Below are positions 5,554 through 17,452 of a DNA stretch of 64,000 nucleotides, in pieces. Under the pieces are notes generated by a model. That model saw only the letters and a program-made list of their open reading frames with translations. It did no database searches and was not told where the DNA came from. Within the stretch, counting starts at the first letter, position 1. The number at the start of each line of letters is the position of its first letter. This stretch comes from Candidatus Methylophosphatis haderslevensis (GTDB lineage Bacteria > Pseudomonadota > Gammaproteobacteria > Burkholderiales > Rhodocyclaceae). The stretch spans positions 18,087-82,086 of the forward strand of contig JADJSA010000007.1 in assembly GCA_016711925.1 (NCBI GenBank), written 5' to 3'. The position numbers were made by a program, and so were the translations under genes.

Positions 5554-6102
5554 ATGGGTCTCGATCGCGTTCCATCCGGCAAGAATCTGCCGAACGATTT
5601 CAACGTCGTCATCGAAATTTCGATGCACGCCGATCCGATCAAGTACGAAGTCGACAAGGAATCCGGCGCGATTTTCGTCGACCGCTTCATGGGTACGGCC
5701 ATGCACTATCCGTGCAATTACGGCTACATCCCGCACACCATCGCCGGCGACGGCGATCCGGTCGACGTGCTGGTGGTGTCGCCGTTCGGGCTGCCGCCCG
5801 GCACCGTGGTGCGCTGCCGCCCGGTCGGCATGCTGTCGATGGAAGACGAGGCGGGCGCCGACGCCAAGCTGCTCGCCGTGCCGGTCGACCAATTGACGCC
5901 GATGTACCGCGATATCGAGAGCCCGCGCGATTTTCCGCAGATCATGCTCGACCAGATTTCGCACTTTTTCTCCCACTACAAGGATCTCGAGCGCGGCAAG
6001 TTCGTCAAATTGCGCGGCTGGCTCGGCGCCGAAGAAGCGAAGACTGAAATCATCGAAGGCGTGCAGCGCTTTGCCGACGCGAAGGAGAAGCCGGCGTTCT
6101 AA
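5554..6102 (+). CDS. ppa: inorganic pyrophosphatase
   Basis: 182 aa with YPCNYGYIPHTIAGDGDPVDVLV and other family I PPase signatures. Confidence 0.92.
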   Translation: MGLDRVPSGKNLPNDFNVVIEISMHADPIKYEVDKESGAIFVDRFMGTAMHYPCNYGYIPHTIAGDGDPVDVLVVSPFGLPPGTVVRCRPVGMLSMEDEAGADAKLLAVPVDQLTPMYRDIESPRDFPQIMLDQISHFFSHYKDLERGKFVKLRGWLGAEEAKTEIIEGVQRFADAKEKPAF

Positions 6103-6120: not shown

Positions 6121-6147
6121 AAAAGCCCGCAGAGTGCGGGCTTTTTT
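6121..6147 (+). terminator. rho-independent terminator of ppa
   Basis: GCCCGC-AGAGT-GCGGGC hairpin followed by T6, 19 nt after the ppa stop. Confidence 0.8.
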
Positions 6148-6330: not shown

Positions 6331-7455
6331 TCAAGAGGTCAGTCGGCGGGCGTTTGCCGCCTCGGCCGGCGGCAGGCGCTTGAGCGGAATGTTGACGTAG
6401 ATGCCGGCGAACAGGTCCGCATCGAGATAGTCGGCCGGCTTCGCAAGGTTGAAGCGCGGCGCGATTTCGTCGATCGCGAGGCGCGTCTTGTCGTCGAGCG
6501 TGCCGGTCGCGGCGAGCGGAAAGCCGAATTCCTTGAGCGTGTTCTGCAGCCACTTGACCTTGGTCGGCGTATCGTTCTTGACGTAGCTGCGCTTGATCGC
6601 ATCCATGACAACCGGGTCGGCCTTGCCGTTCGGAATGCAGCGCCAGTAGGGCACGTTGGTATGACGGCCGAGCACTTCGAGCACCGACAGGTCGACCAGC
6701 AGGCGGATCGCGCTGTGGCGTCCCTGCAGGTAGCGCGTGTTGCTCACCACGCCGAAGGCATTGCCATAGATCGCAAAATCGATGCCGTTCTCGTAAGTCT
6801 GGTTGAGCACCCGGATCGTGTTGGTCGCCTGCACCCGCGGAATCATGGTCTGGGTGCTGAAATCGATCAGGTTCAGATCGAGCGACAGATCGGACAATGT
6901 GGTGGCCGATTTGCGGTCCCAACTCAGGTCGGTCTGGCCGCGCCCGCCGCCGAACACGCCGCGTGCGTTCGCGCCCTTGCCCGCGCTGCCGATGGCGCGG
7001 TCGAATTCGGTGATCGCGCCGGTTATCAAAACGTCCGGCTGGGTCAGTTGAATCTTGGAACCCTGCTGCGCGTGGGCGATCACGTAATCGGGCTGGAACG
7101 GAACATATACGACTCGCTGCCCGACCCGGTTGATCGCGCTGCGCACCATCTCGGTGACGTCGCCGGGAAGTTCGGCGCCGACCAGCGGATGCGAAAGACC
7201 GGTGGCATCGCCGATGCCGCGCGTCTGCACATAGAGCACCTTGCCCGACGGGCGATACTTCTCCAGCAGGTCGCCGAAGCTCTCCAGCGCGCCGCTGTAG
7301 CGCGTGACCAGCGCGGTCGGGCTGCTCGATTCGGCCGTCTTCCTGGCCACCAATTCGCGCGCCGCCTTTTCGGACTCGCCGAGGGTTGCACACCCGCCGC
7401 CGGCCAGGCTGGCGATGGAGAGCAGAGCCAGACAACAGAATTTCGATGTGTTCAT
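6331..7455 (-). CDS. CsgG/HfaB-like outer-membrane lipoprotein with C-terminal peptidoglycan-binding domain
   Basis: Lipobox LAGGGC. Core resembles CsgG (GDATG...DVTEMVRSAINRVG...ITGAITEFD...LDLNLID). The C-terminus VKWLQNTLKEFGFPLAATGTLDDKTRLAIDE matches the PG_binding_1 pattern. Confidence 0.6.
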   Translation of the reverse strand: MNTSKFCCLALLSIASLAGGGCATLGESEKAARELVARKTAESSSPTALVTRYSGALESFGDLLEKYRPSGKVLYVQTRGIGDATGLSHPLVGAELPGDVTEMVRSAINRVGQRVVYVPFQPDYVIAHAQQGSKIQLTQPDVLITGAITEFDRAIGSAGKGANARGVFGGGRGQTDLSWDRKSATTLSDLSLDLNLIDFSTQTMIPRVQATNTIRVLNQTYENGIDFAIYGNAFGVVSNTRYLQGRHSAIRLLVDLSVLEVLGRHTNVPYWRCIPNGKADPVVMDAIKRSYVKNDTPTKVKWLQNTLKEFGFPLAATGTLDDKTRLAIDEIAPRFNLAKPADYLDADLFAGIYVNIPLKRLPPAEAANARRLTS

Positions 7456-7482
7456 GATCTCGTCCCGCCTATGGTTGGAAAT

Positions 7483-7857
7483 CTACTTGCCGCCCACCGT
7501 CGTGATGTTTCCGTTGATCGCGCCCCGTTCGACGATCACCGTGATGTTGCCGCGATTGCCGCCTTCGATATGCGGGCTCGCGATGTTGATGTCGCCGCCG
7601 TTGTCGTCCGGATTCGCCGAGACGGACTGCTTGTTGGCGATGGCGGTACGCACGTTCGACATGGCTTCATGCGTCGCGCGATGAGCCTTGCTGCGTGCCG
7701 CAACCGCGTAGATGCCGATATTCCGAACGTCGATCGGCTCGCGGTCGAGTTGCGCGGCATAGCCCTTGATCGGCGCGTAATACTCCGGGTCGATCGCGTT
7801 GGACACGTTTGCGATCAGGCAGCCCCAAAGTGCCAGGACAATTTTTCGTAGCAGCAT
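7483..7857 (-). CDS. small exported protein (124 aa), Gly/Asn-rich C-terminal repeats
   Basis: ATG at 7857, N-terminal hydrophobic signal MLLRKIVLALWGCLIANVSNA, tail GGDINIASPHIEGGNRGNITVIVERGAINGNITTVGGK. Only the last 124 codons of the 288-aa track ORF look coding. Confidence 0.5.
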   Translation of the reverse strand: MLLRKIVLALWGCLIANVSNAIDPEYYAPIKGYAAQLDREPIDVRNIGIYAVAARSKAHRATHEAMSNVRTAIANKQSVSANPDDNGGDINIASPHIEGGNRGNITVIVERGAINGNITTVGGK

Positions 7858-7913
7858 CTTTGCCTCCGGGCCGGACTGGGGGGCGACCGGGCGTCGCCCC
7901 CCAACGCGATTGA

Positions 7914-8270
7914 TCACTTCAGTACAACGGAATTCACGTTCATCGTGCCGCCACCGAGGTTGTAGACGTCTTCCGCCTTGTTGCCGTCGATCAGTACCGT
8001 CCCGCCGATCTTGCCGCCATTGGAGACCACCAGCGAGTTCACGTTGGTTTCGCCTGCCGCATCGACCTGGACTTTCGCACCCGTGAGCGCCCCGAGAACG
8101 CCGCCCGACTTGACCCCGACGTTCGCGCCGCCGGACATGATCCGGGTCGCCTTGTTGTTGCTTACGGTGACCGATGCGCCCGACATGATCTCCGGTGCGC
8201 CGGCGGCGAGTACGGACATCGACGCGGCAGCCAGCGTGGAAATGACAATCAACTTGGATACGATCTTCAT
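7914..8270 (-). CDS. small secreted repeat protein (118 aa), beta-solenoid/curlin-like periodicity
   Basis: Signal peptide MKIVSKLIVISTLAAASMSVLAAGA. The mature part is Gly/Asn/Val-rich, with a GG...V.V pattern recurring every ~15-17 aa. Confidence 0.6.
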   Translation of the reverse strand: MKIVSKLIVISTLAAASMSVLAAGAPEIMSGASVTVSNNKATRIMSGGANVGVKSGGVLGALTGAKVQVDAAGETNVNSLVVSNGGKIGGTVLIDGNKAEDVYNLGGGTMNVNSVVLK

Positions 8271-8361: not shown

Positions 8362-9169
8362 TCAGGCGAGGGCGCGAAACTGCACGCGACGGTTGTAGGC
8401 GCTGTTCGGGTGGGTGCCAGGCAGCGGCTTGGCGGAACCCAGCCCCTTCGCAACCAGCGCCGCTTCCGGGATGGCGTGGCTGGCGATCAGGTAGCGTTTG
8501 ACGGCCTCGGCGCGGAGCCGCGACAGCTTGAGGTTGCCGGCGCTCGAACCTGCGGCATTGGTGTGTCCCTCCACCACCACCTTGCGTTCGAAGCCTGCCA
8601 GCTTGATGCCCTCGGCGATCGAGTCGATCGCGCGCTTGGAGGCATCATTCAACTGCCATGAATTGTTGGCGAACTTGATCGCCAGCGCCAATGCGTCCGC
8701 CTTGCCGGCCGAGGCCGGCCGGGGCGATTCCGTCTGTTGCGCGGCCTTTCGCGCATAGGCGGTCGAAGCCACCGCTTCGCCGCGCAAGCCATCCGCCCGG
8801 GACGGCAGCGCATAGGCGGTCTTCTGCATCGCGCCGCCACTGCCGCGCTGCGCGATCTGGCCGAGTTTTGCGTTCCATGCGCCGACTGCTGCACTCGCGC
8901 TGGCGGCGATCTCGTCTTCGCTGACGGTATGGCCGGCATCCTTGATTTCCTGTTCCACCGCAGCGGGTTCGTCAGGTGTATAGAACAGACCGCGCGTCTT
9001 GGGCAGGCTGGCGAAGCGTGCCGGCGTGGCGCCCAGTATCCGCGCCACCACGCGCGGGTCGGGCACGTCCCCGGCCTGGTACACCCGGATGCTTTCCGCA
9101 CAGGCTGCAGCGCTCACGACAAGGGCGATCGAGCAGGGAGAGGGTCGAGCGGATGATTCGTGCGTTCAT
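8362..9169 (-). CDS. OmpA/MotB-family peptidoglycan-associated protein; signal peptide out of frame by one base
   Basis: C-terminal OmpA_C motif VVVEGHTNAAGSSAGNLKLSRLRAEAVKRYL...NRRVQF. The track ORF starts at GTG 9117 with no signal peptide. An ATG at 9169 with an AAGGAG RBS encodes MNARIIRSTLSL. Dropping one base near 9130-9134 joins it to IALVVSAAACAES. Confidence 0.65.
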
Positions 9170-9222: not shown

Positions 9223-9250
9223 TGTCGAAGGAGCGATCGCACCGGTTCAA
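9223..9250 (-). promoter_or_regulatory. ECF-type promoter candidate TTGAACC-N16-CGACA upstream of the ompA-like gene
   Basis: The minus strand reads TTGAACC-ggtgcgatcgctcctt-CGACA, in the 150-nt gap between the caspase stop (9320) and the ATG at 9169. Same -35, spacer length and -10 core as the two sites at 15769-15796 and 16156-16183. Confidence 0.55.
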
Positions 9251-9319: not shown

Positions 9320-12208
9320 TCAGCGAATCGGGCTCGCGATTTGCCCGATCACGCTGTCGCGCAGTGCGACGGGCGAAATCATCTGCGGGGTCTGCGGGCC
9401 GAGCCGCCGGTCGCGCAGGCGATCGACCATCGGCACGGCATGGTCGAACAGTTCGCGCAGAGTGAGCTTGCGGTCGCGATCGGCGTCGGCTGCACCGCTC
9501 AGACCCTCGAGCAGCGCATAGGTGAACAGGCCGTGCCGGCCCGGCGCATATTCTTGCGAATCCTCGCCGCCGCGCGCCGCCACCACCAGGGCGAAGCGCG
9601 AACTGGCCGAGCGTTTGGCGAGATTGTGAGAATCGAAGGTGCCGGCGATGTTCTTTGCCTGGCAGGTGTCGACGATCAATATGCGGCGTCCGGCGACGGC
9701 GCGCAACGCGTCGAAGAAATGCGTCCATGAGAGCAGCGAATCGCCGCCCGGCGGACGGCCCCTGACCAATTGTTCGACGTCTTTCGGATCGGCATCGCGC
9801 GGCACGAAGTAGTAGTTGCCGGCAGCGTCGCTGATGCCGTGCGAGGCGAGGAAGATCACCACCGTGTCGCGTGCGCGCGCTGAGCGCGCGAACTTGAGCG
9901 CGGCGAGGATGCTGGCCTTGTCGGGCTTGCCGGCGCTGGCATCGCTGAGCAGTTTGACGCGTACGTTGGCGAAGAGGCCCTTGCCCGTGCGTTCGAGTGC
10001 GGCGGCCATCTCCTCGGCGTCCTGTGCGGAGAAGTTCAGCCTGAACTTGTCGGCCAGCCGCGGAAAGCTGCCCGCACCGATCGCGAGCAGGTAGAGATCG
10101 CCACGGCCCGCGGCGGGTTCGGCGGCGTCGGAGAATACGACCTGTTCGGCAACGCCGATCGAGACGCCGTTGAACACCTCGACCCGCACCCGATTGATGC
10201 CGCGCGCGAGTTCAAGGTCGAGCTCGCGCGAAAACTGCTCGCTTGCGCCGCCGGAGAGTTCGCGCTCGCTGGCGGCGATCACCGGGACGTTGTTGACGAA
10301 CACCGCGACATCGCGCATCGGCAGGCGCGTGCGCTGCGCGCTCAGCCGAAAACGGGAACGGGATGCACTCTTCTCGCTGCGCCGCAGCCGTTCGAGTTGC
10401 AGCCGGGGCGGGGCCACTTCCGCCAGCCGCGTGACATCGAATCCCTTCTTCCCGTCGATCTCCGGCAACGCGCGACCCTTGCTGGTGAAAAATGCCTGGA
10501 CCATATCCGGCCGGTAGAGCAGCCGGTCGAACTGCGAGGCCAGCACGAAGTCGGGCGCGCTCTCCTTGCCCTGGTTGATAAGCCAGCCGATGTAGTTGTC
10601 GCCCTGCGGCGATGATGTGTAGTAGCCAGCCGGAATCCAGGCGATCCATTCGCGGCTGTGCGCGTGCACGAACAGCGCCAGCACTTCGGCGCCGTCGTCC
10701 ATCCGGTACCAGCGCAGGGTGCCGTCGCCCAGACCGGCGACCACCCATTCGCCATTGCCGCTGATCGTCGCCGCCAGCGCCACCGACGGAAGCGCCTTGC
10801 TCCACGCGATGGCGCCGGCGGAATCGACGCGGTGCAGGTTCCATTCGGTGCCGAGCACGGCGCTGCGCAGGTTCGGCGCGATCGCATGGCAGCGCGACCG
10901 CTCGTAGGGTTCGAGCGCGATGGCCTTGCCGTTGAGCATCGGGCGATAACCGTCGCGGGCGTGTTCGATTCTCCAGCCTGCGGCCGAACGGATCGGCCCT
11001 TGCAGGCCGCGACGCTGTTCGGCCGATGGTTCGCCGTCGGCTTCGGCGAGCGAGAAATACGCCGGGCCACGTGGCGCCGGAAACGACACCAGCGACGCAT
11101 CGGGAGCGAGTTTGAGCGTGGCGTTGATGTACACCGGCAACTCCGACTCATGCACCGCCAACACCTTGCCCTCGCTGTCGATCAGGCCGATGCTCGGATC
11201 GTCGGTGGTGAACGCGATCTCGCCCGACGCCGTGGCGGCGATGTCCCCGAGGCGGGTGCGGGCAACCGGCGTGGCGACCGGCTTGCCGCGCCCGTCTGCG
11301 GGCCAACAGCGGATGTGGTTGGTACCCGCGGCGCGAGCCTCGCCCGCGGCGCAGAGTTTTTTGCCGCGCGCCGCCCAACTCAGCGAATAGAGGTTGACCA
11401 GATTGGCCGCCGCGTCGCGGGCCGAGGCCCAGATTGGCGTCAAGTCCCGGGCCGAGAGGACGGCGATGCGCGGCGTGTCGTAAAAGCCTACGGCTATCCG
11501 CTCGCCGTCCGGTGAATAGCGGATCGACGCCGGTTTGTTCCCGGCGAGCATGCGCTTGCGCAGGCGCAGCCTGGCCTGCTCGTCATAGAGCCGGACCATG
11601 CCGTCGAGCGAACTGACCGCGAGGCGCCCGGCCGCGTCGTAGTCCATCTCGATTATTTTGTCGGCATACTGCGCGTCGCGCCCGGCAATCCGGTAGTCGC
11701 TGCTGTCCAGAACGTAGAGCCCCGAATTGCCAAGCAGGCCGACCGCCAGGTGCTTTCCGTCCGGCGAATAGCCGAGCGCGCCGACCCCTTCGGGAAAGCC
11801 GCCGATCCGGCGCACCAGGCGCCCGCCGTTCATGTCGAACAGATAGACGCTGGCCTTGCCGTCCCAGTCCCAACCGGTCCACCCGGCCACAGCCAGGGTG
11901 GCGCCGTCGGGCGAGAGGGCGGCGGCGTACAACTGGCCTTCGTTTCCGTCGGCGATCGGCACGCGCAAGGTCGCCCGCAACTGCAAGTCGGGCAGGCCCC
12001 AGATGCGTATGGTTTTGTCGTGACCGACCGAAATGATCTGGGAACGCGTGGCGTCGGCCACGATCTTGTGCACGGCGCCGACGTGGGAGCCGGGTTCGAT
12101 CAGAAGAATCGGCGCTGCCGGCGGCCCGTCGATGCGCGCGACCCCCGGCAGGGGACAAGCGAGGCTGGTGGCGGCCAGCAGCGCCGCGAGCCAGCGCCGA
12201 CTACCCAC
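9320..12208 (-). CDS. secreted WD40 beta-propeller / caspase (peptidase C14) fusion protein
   Basis: N-terminal signal peptide (RRWLAALLAATSLA). WD repeats (GHDKTIRIWGL, SLDGMVRLYD, GLGDGTLRWY). C-terminal C14 domain with His in VVIFLASHG and Cys in ILIVDTCQA. Confidence 0.8.
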   Translation of the reverse strand: MGSRRWLAALLAATSLACPLPGVARIDGPPAAPILLIEPGSHVGAVHKIVADATRSQIISVGHDKTIRIWGLPDLQLRATLRVPIADGNEGQLYAAALSPDGATLAVAGWTGWDWDGKASVYLFDMNGGRLVRRIGGFPEGVGALGYSPDGKHLAVGLLGNSGLYVLDSSDYRIAGRDAQYADKIIEMDYDAAGRLAVSSLDGMVRLYDEQARLRLRKRMLAGNKPASIRYSPDGERIAVGFYDTPRIAVLSARDLTPIWASARDAAANLVNLYSLSWAARGKKLCAAGEARAAGTNHIRCWPADGRGKPVATPVARTRLGDIAATASGEIAFTTDDPSIGLIDSEGKVLAVHESELPVYINATLKLAPDASLVSFPAPRGPAYFSLAEADGEPSAEQRRGLQGPIRSAAGWRIEHARDGYRPMLNGKAIALEPYERSRCHAIAPNLRSAVLGTEWNLHRVDSAGAIAWSKALPSVALAATISGNGEWVVAGLGDGTLRWYRMDDGAEVLALFVHAHSREWIAWIPAGYYTSSPQGDNYIGWLINQGKESAPDFVLASQFDRLLYRPDMVQAFFTSKGRALPEIDGKKGFDVTRLAEVAPPRLQLERLRRSEKSASRSRFRLSAQRTRLPMRDVAVFVNNVPVIAASERELSGGASEQFSRELDLELARGINRVRVEVFNGVSIGVAEQVVFSDAAEPAAGRGDLYLLAIGAGSFPRLADKFRLNFSAQDAEEMAAALERTGKGLFANVRVKLLSDASAGKPDKASILAALKFARSARARDTVVIFLASHGISDAAGNYYFVPRDADPKDVEQLVRGRPPGGDSLLSWTHFFDALRAVAGRRILIVDTCQAKNIAGTFDSHNLAKRSASSRFALVVAARGGEDSQEYAPGRHGLFTYALLEGLSGAADADRDRKLTLRELFDHAVPMVDRLRDRRLGPQTPQMISPVALRDSVIGQIASPIR

Positions 12209-12229
12209 GTGGCCGGCCCCGCAGCCTGG

Positions 12230-13978
12230 TCAGGAGCAGGCCGTGGCGCGAGACTGCTCTGCGCGGCGCACTGCCACATGCCGCGCCGGCGCGCGCGCTT
12301 TGCACGCCACCGGCGGCGTCGTTGCCGCGTTGCTCGCGCGGGCGAACACATCTGGGGCGGCGCCATAGGCTGGGGAACTGCGACCCAGATCGGCCGTCTG
12401 CGCGATGCCGCGACCGCTGAGTTCGCCCGGCCGGTGCGGCGCACTGGCCTGCACCGGGTTCTCGGCGACTCGCAGGCCGCGGGTTACCGTGTCGCCCTGC
12501 AGCCGCGCGAGCGCAAACGACGCGCGGGTGACGCGGCCGAAGATCAGCGGTTGGACCGGATTGCCCGGGGCTGCCGCCAAGGTGCGGGTTGTGGCAGCGC
12601 GCGCCTGACGCGGACGGCGGTTGCGCGGCGGGTTGGCGGCGTACTCGTCGTCGCCGGCTTGCGCGACCGCTCGCGAGGCGGCGGCTTTGGCGGCCTGGGT
12701 TTGGCCGGAGGCGCGCCGGGCAGGGAAGTCGGCGGCGGTGTCTTTCGGCGCGGTGGCGGCCGTGGGCCGCGTGGCGTCGAACTCGCCGATGCTGCGATCG
12801 ACGATATCCATGCCCTGGCGCAGCGACTGCGCCGCAGGCGCACCGGCACGGCTCGGATCGGCGCTCGAATCGGGCAACATGACGGTGATGCTGCCGGGGT
12901 CCGGGTTACGCTGTTGCGACGCGGGGCTTTGCGGCACGCTTCCGGCCACCGGGTCGCCCTGCTGCGACGTCGGGCCGTGGGGAACCTGGCCGCGCGGCGT
13001 TTCTCTCCCTCCGACGGCCTTGCCGGTTGATGGATCGATCGCACTGGCACTCGGCGCATAGGCGAGTTTGACCGGTTCGCTCGCGGCCGTGTTGCGTACG
13101 CTGCCTGAACCGGCGCTTTCCCATGCAGCCGGAGCGGGAGCGGAATTGCTGGCAGCGCTGCCCGGTGCGGCTCTGCCCGAGCGCTCGGCCTGTTGCGGGC
13201 GCGACGGTGCCGGCTGGGGCGCGCTGGTCGGTGCGGCCTGCGTTGCGCTGGCATTGGGCGGCGGGAACGCTGCCGGCGACACTGCGGTCTTGAGCAGCGT
13301 TCCGTCCGGGTTGCGGTAGTAGTTGATGGTGATCTCGTGGCCGTCCGATCCCTTGACGTACTCGGTCTTGACCGGGTTGCCGAGCCCGCCACCCGTGCTG
13401 GTCCTGGATGCGCCGGCGGCGGTTTGCGCCGCTGCCGCAGCCGCGGTGGCCGCGGGGCGATCCGCGCCGCCTTGCCCCGTGGCGGAGGCTGGCGCCGGTG
13501 GTGGCGGCGCAGCCGCCGCGCGAGGTGCCGACGAAACCGCTTCTACCGGTTTGGCAGGCTGATCGGGTGCCTTGGTGATGGCGACGGACGGGGTACGGGG
13601 AATCTGCCCGTTCAGGCCGCCGCCGCCGAGCATGGATTTGGCACCGGAGACCGGCGCCGGCTGCGCCGCTGCGGTCTTTGCGGCAGGGGCGACCTTTGCG
13701 GCAACGGCCGCCGCCGCGGACGCCGCGCCCTTTGCAACAGCCGGGACCAGCGGGGGCGGGGCTTTGACGGGCTTGGCGGCGGCGGACGTGGTCGACTGCC
13801 TGGATGCGCTTTGGCTGGTGTTCGGCGGAATGATGCCTCCGCTCGAGAATCTCGCATCGGCCTTGCCGGATGCCAGGACAGAGAAAACGATGCCCAGACA
13901 CAGGGCAGAGATGCGCCGCGTTGGCCCGGTGCACGTCCGGCGGGAATTGTGCCGCGCTGCAGTCGAGATTCGTGTCAT
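12230..13978 (-). CDS. secreted Ala/Pro/Ser/Thr-rich low-complexity protein (582 aa), function unknown
   Basis: GGGGAGA RBS plus ATG at 13978, signal-like segment ISALCLGIVFSVLASGKADA. It is the only frame without an extreme Arg bias. It sits tightly packed between the TpsB-like and caspase genes. Confidence 0.5.
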   Translation of the reverse strand: MTRISTAARHNSRRTCTGPTRRISALCLGIVFSVLASGKADARFSSGGIIPPNTSQSASRQSTTSAAAKPVKAPPPLVPAVAKGAASAAAAVAAKVAPAAKTAAAQPAPVSGAKSMLGGGGLNGQIPRTPSVAITKAPDQPAKPVEAVSSAPRAAAAPPPPAPASATGQGGADRPAATAAAAAAQTAAGASRTSTGGGLGNPVKTEYVKGSDGHEITINYYRNPDGTLLKTAVSPAAFPPPNASATQAAPTSAPQPAPSRPQQAERSGRAAPGSAASNSAPAPAAWESAGSGSVRNTAASEPVKLAYAPSASAIDPSTGKAVGGRETPRGQVPHGPTSQQGDPVAGSVPQSPASQQRNPDPGSITVMLPDSSADPSRAGAPAAQSLRQGMDIVDRSIGEFDATRPTAATAPKDTAADFPARRASGQTQAAKAAASRAVAQAGDDEYAANPPRNRRPRQARAATTRTLAAAPGNPVQPLIFGRVTRASFALARLQGDTVTRGLRVAENPVQASAPHRPGELSGRGIAQTADLGRSSPAYGAAPDVFARASNAATTPPVACKARAPARHVAVRRAEQSRATACS

Positions 13979-14010: not shown

Positions 14011-15726
14011 TCAGAAGCGGTAGCTGAGTCCAGCGAACAGCCGCGGACGGCGGTTGCCAGGCTCGGACACATCGCGCGTCAGCGGCTGCGCGACTTCCAC
14101 AAACGCGCCGGCGCTGCTGCCCAAATTCATGCGCACTCCCAGGCCCGCGGAGGACGCGGAGTGTGAAGAAACTTCACCGAGATCTTGCCGCGGCGAGCGA
14201 ATCCAGGCCTTGCCGATGTCGTAGAAACCGTAAACCGTGTACGGGCCGGGCAGCGCTTCGGGTTTGCCGCCGCTCAGGCGCAGCTCGAGCTTGAGCGCCA
14301 GGCCGGAATCGCCCACCAGTTCGGCCGCATTGTAGCCCCGCCCGAACTGTTCGCCGCCGAACGCGAACTGCTCCGGCACCAGCAGGCTGTTGGCGGCGAT
14401 CTGGCCATTGATTGCCGCCAGCAGCGACCAGCGCTCGGCGATCGATTGCAGCCGAGCGGCATAAATCGTGGTCTTGAAAAAGTCGTTGCGGCCGTTCTCG
14501 CGCGAACGGTCCGGATCGTCGTTCGACGATGCGCCCAGGCCGCGCAGACCCTTGGACAATTCGACCTCGAGCAGATTCACGCCGCCTAGGGTATCCACCG
14601 AGTCGAGCGTCATTGCCAGCCGCAGCGCGCGAATTCGGTCGCGGGTAACCGGCGAACCGGGCACGTCGGTCTTGCCGTTGTGCGCGGTGTAGGCGCCGCG
14701 CAGATAAACGTTGGCGTCCTGCGTGCGGTAGAGCGGGTAGCTCGCCGAAATTGCCATGCCGCGCGACTGCGTTTCGAGGTTGCTGTTGAAGCCGGGATCG
14801 CTGGCGCGTGAATCGCTGCCATTGACCGAAAGGCCCACCCGCGCGCCGCTCGATCCGATCGGTTCGTCATGGGAAAGGACGAGGTAGTTAAGTTCGCGGT
14901 TGCCGGTGGTCACGGCACGAAACGCAGTCTCGTCGAAGTTCCCGGTAAGCCCGGTTGCGAACACGTCGAAATAGCCGCGCCAGGCACCGGCGGATCGACT
15001 GCCCCGGTTGTCCGCAGCGACCGCGCCGCCGAAGCGGTTGCGCGCGACCTCGATGACCAGCGCATGCGCGCCGGGTTGCCCGGAGATCGGTTCCAACGCG
15101 GAAGAAACGCCGAGGCCGCCGAGATCGTTCATCAGGAACAGATTGCGCTCGAGCACGTTTGCCGTTGCCGGGCGCTCCTGGCGAATCGGCTGGACGAACG
15201 GCTCGAAGGCCGCGAGCGGGATGTCGCCGCCGCCTTGAATCCGCACCTCGGCCACGTAACCCTCGCTGGCGGCAAGACGCACCACGCCGTTGGTCACGCT
15301 TTGCTCGGGCACCGCGACTTCCGACAACAGGTAGCCGTCGCGTCGATAGCGCTGAGTGAGCGTCTCGGCCAGCGCCATCAACTCGGCCTGCGTCACCTTG
15401 CGGCCGAGGTAGGGCGCGAACACCGGTTGCAGATCGTCCTGACGATACACGGTGCTGCCTTCGAGTTGGAAACCCGATACGTCGACGCCTTCGCCCAGCG
15501 GGGGCGGACGGGTTGCGCGTTGGGGCAGGGCCGGCGGGCGCGGTCTCGCGCCACTGCGCGATTGCGGCGGCTTGCGGAATTGCCGTTCGACCTGGCCGCC
15601 GGAATCGATGTCGCCGGCGCCGATTGCGACCGGCACAGAGGTTGCGCAAAGGATGAGAACGGCGAGCGGCCGCCGGGCAATCAGGCAGACGCGGTTACGG
15701 CGTCGATCACTCAAGTTGGGCTGCAT
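14011..15726 (-). CDS. ShlB/FhaC/HecB-family (TpsB) outer-membrane transporter with POTRA domain
   Basis: 571 aa. Signal peptide, POTRA-like FQLEGSTVY...LGRKVTQAELMALAETLTQRYRRDGYLLSEV, and a beta-barrel ending ...RLFAGLSYRF with a terminal aromatic residue. Confidence 0.8.
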   Translation of the reverse strand: MQPNLSDRRRNRVCLIARRPLAVLILCATSVPVAIGAGDIDSGGQVERQFRKPPQSRSGARPRPPALPQRATRPPPLGEGVDVSGFQLEGSTVYRQDDLQPVFAPYLGRKVTQAELMALAETLTQRYRRDGYLLSEVAVPEQSVTNGVVRLAASEGYVAEVRIQGGGDIPLAAFEPFVQPIRQERPATANVLERNLFLMNDLGGLGVSSALEPISGQPGAHALVIEVARNRFGGAVAADNRGSRSAGAWRGYFDVFATGLTGNFDETAFRAVTTGNRELNYLVLSHDEPIGSSGARVGLSVNGSDSRASDPGFNSNLETQSRGMAISASYPLYRTQDANVYLRGAYTAHNGKTDVPGSPVTRDRIRALRLAMTLDSVDTLGGVNLLEVELSKGLRGLGASSNDDPDRSRENGRNDFFKTTIYAARLQSIAERWSLLAAINGQIAANSLLVPEQFAFGGEQFGRGYNAAELVGDSGLALKLELRLSGGKPEALPGPYTVYGFYDIGKAWIRSPRQDLGEVSSHSASSAGLGVRMNLGSSAGAFVEVAQPLTRDVSEPGNRRPRLFAGLSYRF

Positions 15727-15768: not shown

Positions 15769-15796
15769 AGTCGAAACCGGCGCCCGCGGGGTTCAA
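15769..15796 (-). promoter_or_regulatory. ECF-type promoter candidate TTGAACC-N16-CGACT upstream of the TpsB-like operon
   Basis: The minus strand reads TTGAACC-ccgcgggcgccggttt-CGACT. The -10 lies about 43 nt upstream of the ATG at 15726. Confidence 0.6.
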
Positions 15797-16155: not shown

Positions 16156-16183
16156 TTGAACCTGCGCGCGCCTTGCTGCGACT
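16156..16183 (+). promoter_or_regulatory. ECF-type (autoregulatory) promoter candidate TTGAACC-N16-CGACT upstream of the sigma gene
   Basis: The plus strand reads TTGAACC-tgcgcgcgccttgctg-CGACT. The -10 ends 5 nt before the ATG at 16189, which implies a leaderless or near-leaderless mRNA. Confidence 0.55.
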
Positions 16184-16188
16184 CAACA

Positions 16189-16767
16189 ATGACGTCACGA
16201 AACGCCGAGCCGGAAGACCCTCGCATACGGACCCTGCTCGACGCTGTTGAACGCGGCGACGAGGCAGCCATGCAGGATTTGTACCGCTCGTTCAACCGGC
16301 GCGTGTTCGCGTTCGCGATGAACCGTCTGAACGACCATGCGGAGGCCGAAGAAGTGACCATCGATACGCTGCTCGAAGTGTGGAAGCACCCGCAACGATT
16401 CCGTGGCGAATCGCGCTTCAGCACGTGGCTGCTCGGCATCGCGCATCACAAGGCGATCGATCGCCTGCGTTCGCGTCGCAACGATCATGTGCCGGCAGAC
16501 GAGCATCTCGATCTGATCGCCGACCCGGCATTGCGCCCCGACCAGGTGGTCGAAGCGGCCGATCGGCAGCGCATGCTCGCCGAGTGCATGGACAAGCTGC
16601 CCGACGAACAGCGCGAGTGCCTGCACCTGGTGTTGCTCGACGGGCTGTCGCTGGCGGAAGTGTCGCAGGTCCAGGCATGCCCGGAAAACACGGTGAAGAC
16701 GCGGCTCTTCCACGCGCGGCAGAAGATGAAGAACTGCCTCGGGCGGCTCGAAGCCTGGAGTGCCTGA
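16189..16767 (+). CDS. ECF (group 4) RNA polymerase sigma factor
   Basis: Sigma-70 region 2 (DLYRSFNRRVFAFAMNRLNDHAEAEEVTIDTLLEVW) and region 4 (LPDEQRECLHLVLLDGLSLAEVSQVQACPENTVKTRLFHARQKM). The start is taken at ATG 16189. Confidence 0.88.
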   Translation: MTSRNAEPEDPRIRTLLDAVERGDEAAMQDLYRSFNRRVFAFAMNRLNDHAEAEEVTIDTLLEVWKHPQRFRGESRFSTWLLGIAHHKAIDRLRSRRNDHVPADEHLDLIADPALRPDQVVEAADRQRMLAECMDKLPDEQRECLHLVLLDGLSLAEVSQVQACPENTVKTRLFHARQKMKNCLGRLEAWSA

Positions 16768-16768
16768 C

Positions 16769-17452
16769 ATGAGCGAACCGACGACCGAAGCGAACGGCGC
16801 ACGGACTGCCATGATGTTCGCGTATCTGAATGGCGAATTGCCGGCTGACGAACGCGCGCGCTTTGAAGCGACGCTCGACGCCGAGCCGAAGCTTGCCGCC
16901 GAACTGGCCGACTGGCGGCAGCTTCGCGGCGAACTCGAAGTGCGCAGGCAGCAGCGCGCGCCGGAGGCCGGACTGGACGCGTTTTCACGCCAATTGCGGG
17001 GTTTGCGGCAGTCGCGCAAGGCCGGCCTTGCCGCATGGATCGAGGGCGCGATGCGCCCGCTCTATTCACCCCTGCGCTATGCCGCAGCGTTGCTGCTGGT
17101 GGTGGTACAGGCCGGTTTCATCGCCGCCATGTTGCGCGACATGCCGGCGGCCGGGCCGGACGACGCCGGCACGCCGACCGCCCGGGTGCGTTCGATCGAG
17201 AATGCGTCGACGGCCTCGCTGCGCGTGCGCTTCCGGCTCGACGCAACCGCGCGCGAGATCGCCGCCGCCCTGGCGAGCGCCGGTGCGCGCATCGTGGATG
17301 GCCCGGGGCAGGGCGGGTTTTATGCTTTGCGGGTCGCCGAGGGCACGCCTGCCGCCGCGGCCGCCGCGCTGCGTAAGAGTGCGGCCGTCGACGAGATTGT
17401 CGAAGGCCCGAACCCCGAGGCGCCGCCCGCCGATCCGCCGCGCAAGCGCTAG
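16769..17452 (+). CDS. anti-sigma factor, single-pass membrane protein
   Basis: The start overlaps the sigma stop (TGACATG). N-terminal anti-sigma-like helix pattern MMFAYLNGELPADERARFEATLDAEPKLAAELADW without Zn ligands. One TM segment (YAAALLLVVVQAGFIAAML) and a periplasmic C-terminal domain. Confidence 0.7.
   Translation: MSEPTTEANGARTAMMFAYLNGELPADERARFEATLDAEPKLAAELADWRQLRGELEVRRQQRAPEAGLDAFSRQLRGLRQSRKAGLAAWIEGAMRPLYSPLRYAAALLLVVVQAGFIAAMLRDMPAAGPDDAGTPTARVRSIENASTASLRVRFRLDATAREIAAALASAGARIVDGPGQGGFYALRVAEGTPAAAAAALRKSAAVDEIVEGPNPEAPPADPPRKR

Follow-up and report, generated by a model that had tools for sequence, protein, structure and literature searches.

A window of DNA, meaning here the whole stretch of 64,000 nucleotides that was analysed, was taken from contig JADJSA010000007.1 of Candidatus Methylophosphatis haderslevensis (assembly GCA_016711925.1), and all positions below are counted within it. 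Its reverse strand carries a gene, called the WD40-caspase gene here, for a protein in which WD40 beta-propellers are joined to a caspase domain of the C14 family. This gene is preceded on the same strand by a gene for a TpsB transporter, as known from two-partner secretion (TPS), and by a gene for an Ala/Pro-rich protein of 582 residues, referred to as the cargo. The intergenic gaps are short, with 32 bp between tpsB and the cargo gene and 21 bp between the cargo gene and the caspase gene. An extracytoplasmic function (ECF) sigma factor is encoded on the other strand, so that the neighbours proposed in an earlier reading of this DNA from its letters alone (the sequence-only reading) were all recovered. 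The protein and its recurrent association with the two genes upstream of it are the subject of this report.

The sequence-only reading had described the protein as a signal peptide followed by several WD-type repeats and a C14 domain whose catalytic dyad is intact. The peptides that it quoted (GHDKTIRIWGL, DGMVRLYD, GDGTLRWY, FLASHG and IVDTCQA) were all found in the reverse-strand translation of 9320-12208, and the anatomy was borne out by Pfam, by structural models and by alignment. The codon-position GC contents of the open reading frame (ORF) were 0.68/0.51/0.84, and the value of 0.84 at the third position (GC3) resembles that of adjacent genes. The Pfam WD40 family (PF00400) scored 48.6 bits against a cut-off of 27, with WD40 and beta-propeller models matching over about residues 40-330, and Peptidase_C14 (PF00656) scored 41.2 bits over residues 708-945 (cut-off 21.4, E 2e-10). 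A phmmer search of the PDB returned WD40 designs and RACK1, and weak matches to TolB at residues 93-175 had scores far under the family cut-offs.

A full-length AlphaFold2 model was built on a 25-sequence alignment (mean predicted local distance difference test, pLDDT, 84; predicted template modelling score, pTM, 0.77). In this model a low-confidence N-terminal helix, corresponding to the signal peptide, is followed by propeller blades from residue 33 to about residue 560. The best Foldseek matches of the full-length model were the tandem propellers 2ymu, Aip1 (1nr0) and EML1, with 550-760 aligned columns. As this comparison was dominated by the propellers, the C-terminal 268 residues, containing the caspase domain, were modelled on their own for comparing the caspase fold (pLDDT 86.5, pTM 0.87). 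The domain model resembled metacaspase 9 of Arabidopsis, MALT1, GSU0716, caspase-7, CED-3 and legumain (Foldseek, E 1e-10 to 1e-7, template modelling score about 0.55-0.65). The fold comparison was needed because sequence searches against the PDB were uninformative: phmmer with the caspase domain found nothing relevant, the similarity to solved C14 structures being below its detection, and a 13-sequence profile of the domain gave a weak match to Arabidopsis metacaspase 4 (AtMC4; E 0.22).

The two residues of the catalytic dyad, His790 and Cys849, occupy the canonical caspase positions in the AlphaFold2 model, directly after the strands 782-789 and 841-848, respectively. Both were invariant in an alignment of 25 homologues with 40-80% identity, and no loss of dyad residues, which would have spoken against the sequence-only reading, was seen there. 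The ASHG motif around the His was present in 120 of 120 homologues and the [VI][DN]TC motif around the Cys in 118 of the 120. In the weak profile alignment with AtMC4, His790 fell on the SGHG motif and Asp730 was paired with the Asp of the CVND motif. In the alignment of 25 sequences Asp730, Glu882 and Glu886 were also invariant, and Asp847 was conserved in at least 90%. In MALT1 and the metacaspases, acidic residues at such positions make the S1 pocket that binds Arg or Lys. These four conserved acidic residues suggest, for the caspase domain, a preference for a basic residue (Arg or Lys) at P1. Sequence and models together point to a catalytically competent C14 cysteine protease of metacaspase/paracaspase-like type.

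Two further features of the caspase domain were noted. An EF-hand-like loop lies between two of its helices, and the canonical pattern D-x-[DN]-x-[DN]-G-x-[ILV]-x3-E was found in 69 of 115 homologues; the window protein itself has Arg instead of Gly at position 6. Profile searches with the caspase domain also gave weak matches to a calcium-binding protein. The loop is thus a possible Ca2+ site or switch of an extracytoplasmic protease. In addition, an invariant KRS comes just past loop 851-861, which is modelled with low confidence and is next after the catalytic Cys849.

The N-terminus of the protein, MGSRRWLAALLAATSLACPLPGVA/RIDG (the slash marking the predicted cleavage position), has a basic n-region, a hydrophobic h-region and a GVA/R site. 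With a signal-peptide heuristic of our own, the highest hydropathy over 10 residues in the window protein was 2.09, two basic residues preceding that segment, and the heuristic was passed by 84 of the 96 homologues with a full N-terminus, the remainder appearing truncated at the start. The family alignment showed a variable hydrophobic leader with AxA-type sites, followed by a conserved start of the mature protein, P-x-L-R-[VI]-E-x-G-x-H-T. Readings of the leader as that of a lipoprotein or of a Tat substrate were considered and dropped. Because the closest homologues conserve neither the Cys nor the RR pair of the window leader, a route through Sec and signal peptidase I is more likely for this protein than the Tat or lipoprotein route. 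Export of the WD40-caspase is well supported by these sequence features, and its compartment would be the periplasm.

An envelope-located caspase homologue beside a TpsB transporter and under ECF control had been called unusual in the sequence-only reading. This did not hold for the protein itself. Full-length relatives of 930-1010 residues numbered at least 400 in a protein search, with 40-48% identity and 94-100% coverage (the closest at 93% identity), which are named 'caspase family protein' at NCBI and 'WD40 repeat protein' at JGI. A profile of the caspase domain gave 599 clusters at 50% identity (E <=1e-30), most of them of 930-1030 residues with the caspase domain at the C-terminus, and metacaspases with probable signal peptides were already recorded in a survey of 2012. 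The WD40-caspase therefore belongs, as an ordinary member, to a family that is large and already named, though uncharacterised. The five longest relatives inspected, among the top 150 of the caspase subfamily, carried extra WD40 propellers; a fusion of TPS and caspase domains was sought in these five and none was found, nor any TPS domain. What did stand out as unusual was the conserved arrangement of TpsB, cargo and caspase genes.

In a genome scan, 140 loci with a caspase gene of this family were confirmed and 80 were kept. The kept loci comprised about 40 from Betaproteobacteria, 12 from Gammaproteobacteria, 10 from Deltaproteobacteria/Desulfobacterota, 6 from Acidobacteriota and 2 from PVC bacteria. 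The closest genome in the scan was that of Candidatus Methylophosphatis roskildensis (78% identity), and the family was also found in the cultured strains Thauera sp. 2A1, Variovorax paradoxus NBRC 15149 and Variovorax sp. PCZ-1. A complete WD40-caspase gene, followed downstream by an OmpA-like gene, was seen on a 5.6-kb contig (CAYFIY010000046.1) from a bin labelled 'Candidatus Hadarchaeota archaeon'; every other match was bacterial, and the contig is probably a contaminant of that bin.

The annotated gene order, both in Thauera sp. 2A1 and in a contig from Syntrophales, was TpsB (POTRA_2 and ShlB), a TPS-domain protein of 1399-1548 residues, and WD40-caspase. Small hidden Markov models (HMMs) were made from these Thauera/Syntrophales proteins and from the window proteins and were run on the six-frame ORFs of all loci. 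Counts were made over the 57 loci in which 5 kb or more of sequence precedes the caspase gene. In 53 of these a TpsB gene lies upstream and in the same orientation, and in 44 a TPS-domain protein is encoded there. A short cargo of the window type was present in 4, and a cargo of either kind, TPS-domain or window-type, in 47 (one locus has both). Other genes accompanied the caspase gene less often and in varying orders, with an ECF sigma factor gene in 13, an OmpA-like gene in 22 and a CsgG-like gene in 13 of the 57 loci. The loci that group with the window (L003, L004, L005, L060 and, in part, L006; together with the window, the window clade) share one order: genes for an anti-sigma factor and an ECF sigma factor divergent from tpsB, then the short Ala/Pro-rich protein, the caspase, an OmpA-like protein, two small secreted proteins and a CsgG-like protein.

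The 582-residue ORF is a real gene, since the last 237 residues of its product are 50% identical to those of the orthologue in L003 (E 3e-55). It has a Shine-Dalgarno sequence and a GC3 of 0.78, and its high GC content at the second codon position is due to the Ala/Pro richness of the protein. No TPS domain was found in this protein, either by Pfam at E <0.1 or with the TPS profile made here, and only a short GG[IT][IV] stretch past the signal peptide recalls how a TPS domain begins. No matches were obtained when the 110-residue C-terminal module was used as the query of a protein search. The C-terminus does resemble that of the Thauera TpsA protein (GRGIAQTADLGRSSPAYGAAPDVFA in the window cargo compared to GRGLAQSVDLGRSGAFGSPSVVYA). 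Because a 941-residue protein of L049 joins a true Pfam TPS domain (126 bits) to a C-terminal module of the window type, the 582-residue protein is best read, from its sequence, as a TPS-less derivative of that TpsA subfamily. The cargo gene and the caspase gene lie in one reading frame, separated by a TGA stop and 7 codons (12209-12232, reverse strand). The shared frame was also seen in L003 and not in L004, and is probably a coincidence.

The conserved C-terminal part of the cargo contains a Gly/Arg-rich motif (Table 1), which was searched for in several ways. A strict regular expression matched 15 ORFs, all directly upstream of a caspase gene, and in these the C-terminus is 2-56 residues away from the motif. 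With an HMM built for the motif there were 39 matches, 38 of them on the strand of the caspase gene, and 37 were within 64 residues of the ORF C-terminus, nearly all in ORFs labelled as cargo. It also matched at loci with the order TpsA-OmpA-TpsB-caspase, in the variant GGPGVGQxADLGRSG. Within the last 80 residues, 31 of 54 cargo ORFs had the motif, compared to 3 among 981 control ORFs taken from these loci. Further variants were GGRGDARERDFGRG...RVRP and SIGQSVDLGRGS. A scan of metagenome contigs with the back-translated motif gave 39 matches, mostly out-of-frame Arg/Gly-rich noise from GC-rich DNA. The 4 genuine in-frame matches, weak as an unbiased test, all had a caspase gene immediately downstream.

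Two Cys residues are located past the motif in the 582-residue protein, at residues 558 and 581 (VACK ... ATACS-stop; 12233-12331 on the reverse strand, residues 550-582). A Cys 1-2 residues from the C-terminus recurred in the window clade and in the cargos of L050, L055, L057, L059 and L075. The terminal Cys pair suggests a disulphide-closed C-terminal loop, which would fit an oxidising compartment.

Table 1. Features of the WD40-caspase locus, with positions in the window and, where applicable, residues of the encoded protein.
Feature	Position	Strand	Remarks
WD40-caspase gene	9320-12208	-	962 residues, GTG start; signal peptide, tandem beta-propellers, Ig-like domain, C14 domain
Signal peptide of WD40-caspase (predicted)	about 12137-12208 (residues 1-24)	-	n-, h- and c-regions
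Tandem beta-propellers of WD40-caspase	about 10529-12112 (residues 33-560)	-	AlphaFold2 model, Pfam WD40
Ig-like beta-sandwich of WD40-caspase	about 10130-10411 (residues 600-693)	-	AlphaFold2 model
C14 caspase domain of WD40-caspase	about 9341-10096 (residues 705-956)	-	Pfam and AlphaFold2
Codon of catalytic His790	9839-9841	-	inside FLASHG (9833-9853)
Codon of catalytic Cys849	9662-9664	-	inside IVDTCQA (9656-9676); Asp847 at Cys-2
EF-hand-like loop DADRDRKLTLRE	9449-9499 (residues 904-920)	-	between two caspase-domain helices, after HGLFT motif
Cargo-like protein	12230-13978	-	582 residues, Ala/Pro-rich; signal peptide at about residues 1-42, conserved C-terminal module
Cargo C-terminal motif SGRGIAQTADLGRSSPAYGAAPDVFA	12341-12418 (residues 521-546)	-	consensus (G)GRG-x-[AG]-Q-xx-D-[LF]-G-R
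TpsB (Omp85-family) transporter	14011-15726	-	POTRA_2 71.7 bits, ShlB 81.9 bits
ECF sigma factor	16189-16767	+	192 residues; Sigma70_r2, Sigma70_r4_2 and Sigma70_ECF above cut-offs
Single-pass anti-sigma factor	16760-17452	+	hydrophobic segment LRYAAALLLVVVQAGFIAAML; C-terminal ~100 residues presumed periplasmic
ECF-type promoter motif	16157-16182	+	ends 6 bp ahead of sigma ATG 16189; position expected for autoregulation
ECF-type promoter motif	15770-15795	-	44 bp upstream of tpsB ATG
ECF-type promoter motif	9224-9249	-	between caspase stop codon and OmpA-like gene
OmpA/Pal-like protein	8362-9117	-	peptidoglycan-binding domain
Small Gly/Asn-rich repeat protein	7914-8270	-	118 residues; signal peptide
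Second small protein	7483-7857	-	124 residues; signal peptide; starts at internal Met, MLLRKIVLALWGC...
CsgG/HfaB-like lipoprotein	6331-7455	-	lipobox LAGGGC; weak peptidoglycan-binding domain match

The sequence-only reading had also placed the locus under ECF control, and this was supported by a promoter-like motif. Alignment of the divergent intergenic regions revealed the motif TGAACC-N16-CGAC, which occurs on both sides. Six copies were present in the window compared to 0.62 expected, and none of 100 shuffles reached 6. Three of the copies lie upstream of the sigma factor gene, tpsB and the OmpA-like gene, and the same three positions were found in the orthologous loci L003, L004 and L005. 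The other copies (23002, 48964 and 61304) are in or beside housekeeping genes and are probably due to chance. A scan of the island for sigma-70 promoters found none, compared to 1.0 expected, which is uninformative. The mechanically called sigma factor ORF begins at a TTG (16156); the conserved motif overlaps this start, so the ATG at 16189 is the likelier one. In the anti-sigma factor, zf-HC2 scored 21.0 bits, below its cut-off of 22.2, an NCBIfam anti-sigma model matched at E 1e-9, and one transmembrane segment was found. A match of the same protein to Fervidolysin_NPro, which resembles a protease prodomain, was not retained, as it recurred in 1 of 10 orthologues (E 0.064). The arrangement of the three motif copies would fit an ECF regulon with three transcription units that is autoregulated and depends on this sigma factor.

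Downstream of the caspase gene, the OmpA-like gene, the genes of the two small proteins and the CsgG-like gene form a set that was also found in L003, L004, L005 and L060. The CsgG-like protein scored 22.6 bits with CsgG (cut-off 20.8), with partial coverage of the model, and 24 bits with HfaB, for which the cut-off is 300. The genes at 6331-8270 on the reverse strand look, by sequence, like a secretion unit of the curli- or holdfast-anchor type under the same ECF-type motif. A strong, terminator-like bidirectional hairpin with an 11-bp stem and flanking A and T runs (6121-6145) is located between the pyrophosphatase gene (5554-6102, forward strand) and the end of the CsgG-like gene, at one edge of an island of ~11 kb. 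Housekeeping genes flank the island, with ppa and a copper ATPase gene on one side and genes for a FemAB-like protein, NAD synthetase and FtsK on the other.

Additional protease or secretion genes were noticed at several homologous loci. A clear Peptidase_S8 subtilase is encoded between TpsA and the caspase gene in L079 (8327-9859), and a sub-threshold one in L041 (8235-9884); two ORFs possibly of the same in-between kind, at L018 6590-8002 and L078 6862-8445, gave no Pfam match. The subtilase of L079 recalls SphB1, the subtilisin-type protease that matures filamentous haemagglutinin. Two tandem TpsA genes are present in L020 (378-9876), with a strong C-terminal motif in the caspase-proximal copy and a weaker one in the distal copy. 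A second caspase paralogue lies downstream in L029 (14654-16813) and L054 (2449-4725), and genes for a CHASE2-guanylate cyclase and a CHAT-domain protein are found just downstream in L002 (12942-19741). Together, the last four loci suggest a broader link between TPS systems and clan CD proteases.

The kinds of component in this module are already known, and the conserved three-gene TpsB-cargo-caspase module with its cargo tag is apparently undescribed: a search of the literature on two-partner secretion or TpsA together with caspases, metacaspases or CHAT found no description of it. In the survey of Asplund-Samuelsson et al. (2012), prokaryotic metacaspases had WD40 as their most frequent partner domain, N-terminal helices were regarded as probable signal peptides, 30 sequences were classed as extracellular, and OmpA was found in 14 metacaspase operons, as were sigma factors in some (PMC3501461). 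The supplement of that survey contains a fusion of a haemagglutinin domain with C14 in Azospirillum B510, a Paracoccus metacaspase beside a filamentous haemagglutinin and a Hahella metacaspase beside a POTRA_2 (TpsB-type) protein, with no discussion of these as a system (PMC3501461). The Metacaspase-NACHT-WD40 architecture of the same survey shares the WD40 partner with the window protein, but begins with the caspase domain and includes an NTPase domain, whereas the window protein has the reversed order, no NTPase domain and a signal peptide.

Among characterised proteins, the orthocaspases (Geobacter GSU0716, PDB 3bij; Microcystis MaOC1), the plant metacaspases and MALT1 share with the WD40-caspase the caspase-haemoglobinase fold with its strand-end His/Cys dyad, an Asp at Cys-2, further acidic residues and a single-chain p20+p10-like unit. 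The WD40-caspase differs from them in having a signal peptide, an EF-hand-like loop and a genomic linkage to TpsB/TpsA, and in the placement of its C14 domain after the two propellers and the Ig-like domain. Other caspase-fold proteases of clan CD also recognise or process secreted cargo at a C-terminal signal or an internal site, namely PorU in type IX secretion and the C80 cysteine protease domains in MARTX and in large clostridial toxins. They share a working logic with the model proposed below, as an analogy and not by membership, given that the families (C25-like, C80) and the secretion systems differ. TolB is a periplasmic propeller that binds short disordered peptides, such as the TolB box of colicins. 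Its likeness to the WD40-caspase consists in a periplasmic propeller with a short, Gly/Asp-rich disordered motif as a possible ligand, but the WD40-caspase has two propellers and a fused protease, and its TolB scores are far under the cut-offs.

A functional precedent is offered by FhaB and FhaC of Bordetella, which likewise comprise an exoprotein and a TpsB transporter. The prodomain at the C-terminus of FhaB is about 1200 residues long. This C-terminus is retained in the periplasm, where regulated proteolysis removes it, DegP and CtpA degrading it stepwise before SphB1 acts at the surface (PMC8263021). At the loci described here, in contrast, a clan CD C14 protease is encoded inside the operon, where Bordetella uses serine proteases; in place of a long prodomain, the cargo ends in a conserved tag that is short; and the window cargo appears to have lost its TPS domain.

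The WD40-caspase is probably a helper protease of a secretion system rather than a cell-death enzyme. The suggestion of the sequence-only reading that it could process neighbouring secreted proteins was the best-supported one, on the basis of conserved synteny and of the C-terminal motif of the cargo. The best explanation, which falls a little short of being probable, is that this exported C14 protease acts as the dedicated third component of a two-partner (type Vb) secretion module. After Sec export it would remain in the periplasm, since folded propellers cannot pass the TpsB barrel. The propellers, the Ig-like domain or both would dock on the conserved C-terminal module of the cargo, which would stay in the periplasm while the cargo N-terminus threads through TpsB. 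The caspase domain would then cut the cargo after Arg or Lys, in order to mature, release or clear it. Ca2+ may regulate the protease through the EF-hand-like loop, and the pair of ECF sigma and anti-sigma factors would switch on the whole island upon an envelope signal. A broader form of this explanation is more tentative: the loci could represent a widespread three-partner variant of type Vb secretion, in which a periplasmic tandem-propeller caspase homologue reads a short C-terminal sorting tag on the cargo and then cleaves the cargo, or possibly transfers it in the manner of a sortase or PorU, and so decides between anchoring, release and destruction.

Several observations weigh against a dedicated cargo-processing protease. 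No TpsB gene was found upstream in 4 of the 57 loci, and the middle gene in Polaromonas and Variovorax fits neither the TPS-domain nor the window-type profile. The strict motif was lacking from 23 of the 54 cargo ORFs; Acidobacterial cargos have a different, Cys-containing end (CGEE...D-x-GL...C-P-P), and several Deltaproteobacterial cargos stop 2 residues past the motif. Cutting inside the motif would be pointless where the cargo ends 2 residues later, and a docking tag is therefore more likely than a scissile site. Export of the 582-residue protein by TpsB is uncertain, as this protein has no detectable TPS domain. Finally, the assignment of the S1 pocket draws on a sequence pattern and on the known structures of MALT1 and metacaspases rather than on a superposition.

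Some of the same facts would suit a protein that binds more than it cuts. Over half of the WD40-caspase is protein-binding propeller, and the motif at the extreme C-terminus of some cargos suits a binding tag better than a cleavage site. The protein might thus be a periplasmic anchor, plug or chaperone, with propellers that hold the cargo tag and tether the exoprotein and with a protease that only processes itself or serves as a rarely used release switch; the invariant KRS after loop 851-861 sits where caspase-family enzymes autoprocess. However, a pure anchor needs neither dyad nor pocket, and the invariance of the dyad and of the acidic pocket residues across distant phyla argues for selection on catalysis, which makes this alternative unlikely. 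It is quite unlikely, too, that the targets are other products of the island, namely the OmpA-like protein, the small Gly/Asn-rich proteins passing through a CsgG/HfaB-like channel, or the anti-sigma factor as a site-1 substrate whose cleavage would activate the ECF sigma factor. The ECF/anti-sigma, OmpA-like and CsgG-like genes do recur in differing orders at the frequencies given above, and in the window clade all are under one promoter motif; ECF groups with protease neighbours have been described, ECF54 being noted for CHAT and subtilase neighbours (PMC8999054). Most loci lack these genes, though, while TpsB and cargo are nearly universal, and the prodomain-like match in the anti-sigma factor was not reproduced in orthologues.

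The known fusion of a haemagglutinin-type (TPS) domain with C14 (Azospirillum B510 AZL_d04860; supplement of PMC3501461) raises the question of whether the caspase is itself delivered, as the split form of a TpsA with a C-terminal C14 domain that is displayed or released with the TpsA fibre and acts on other cells or on the matrix. This is improbable, as the WD40-caspase has no TPS domain by Pfam and has its own signal peptide, its two large propellers could not cross TpsB once folded, and none of the five longest relatives, with their extra propellers, was a TPS fusion. A cytoplasmic effector of cell death or anti-phage defence, with a hydrophobic N-terminus that is no signal peptide, is hardly credible here. 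Many bacterial caspase and CHAT proteins act in such a way, and the NCBIfam model for EACC1-associated caspases (NF047832) did match, but below threshold (58.4 bits, cut-off 140). PADLOC gave no match for the caspase, the cargo or TpsB. The signal peptide with its AxA-type sites is conserved, the conserved neighbours are all envelope proteins, and the protein contains neither an NTPase nor a sensor domain.

What bacterial caspase homologues do is a question of long standing, and very few have a known substrate. In the family described here, a candidate substrate is fixed by the genomic context, the motif can be recognised, the compartment is defined and a regulator can be proposed, so that the question can be put directly to the test. 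Betaproteobacteria of wastewater, groundwater and soil commonly carry the module, and for this reason it may, speculatively, have a bearing on surface adhesion or on the formation of flocs or biofilms. If the broader three-partner explanation is correct, bacterial caspase homologues would gain a defined envelope function, unrelated to death, with a cognate substrate. Two-partner secretion is usually taught as a matter of two proteins, and the finding would extend it by an accessory protease of its own and by a tag at the C-terminus of the cargo.

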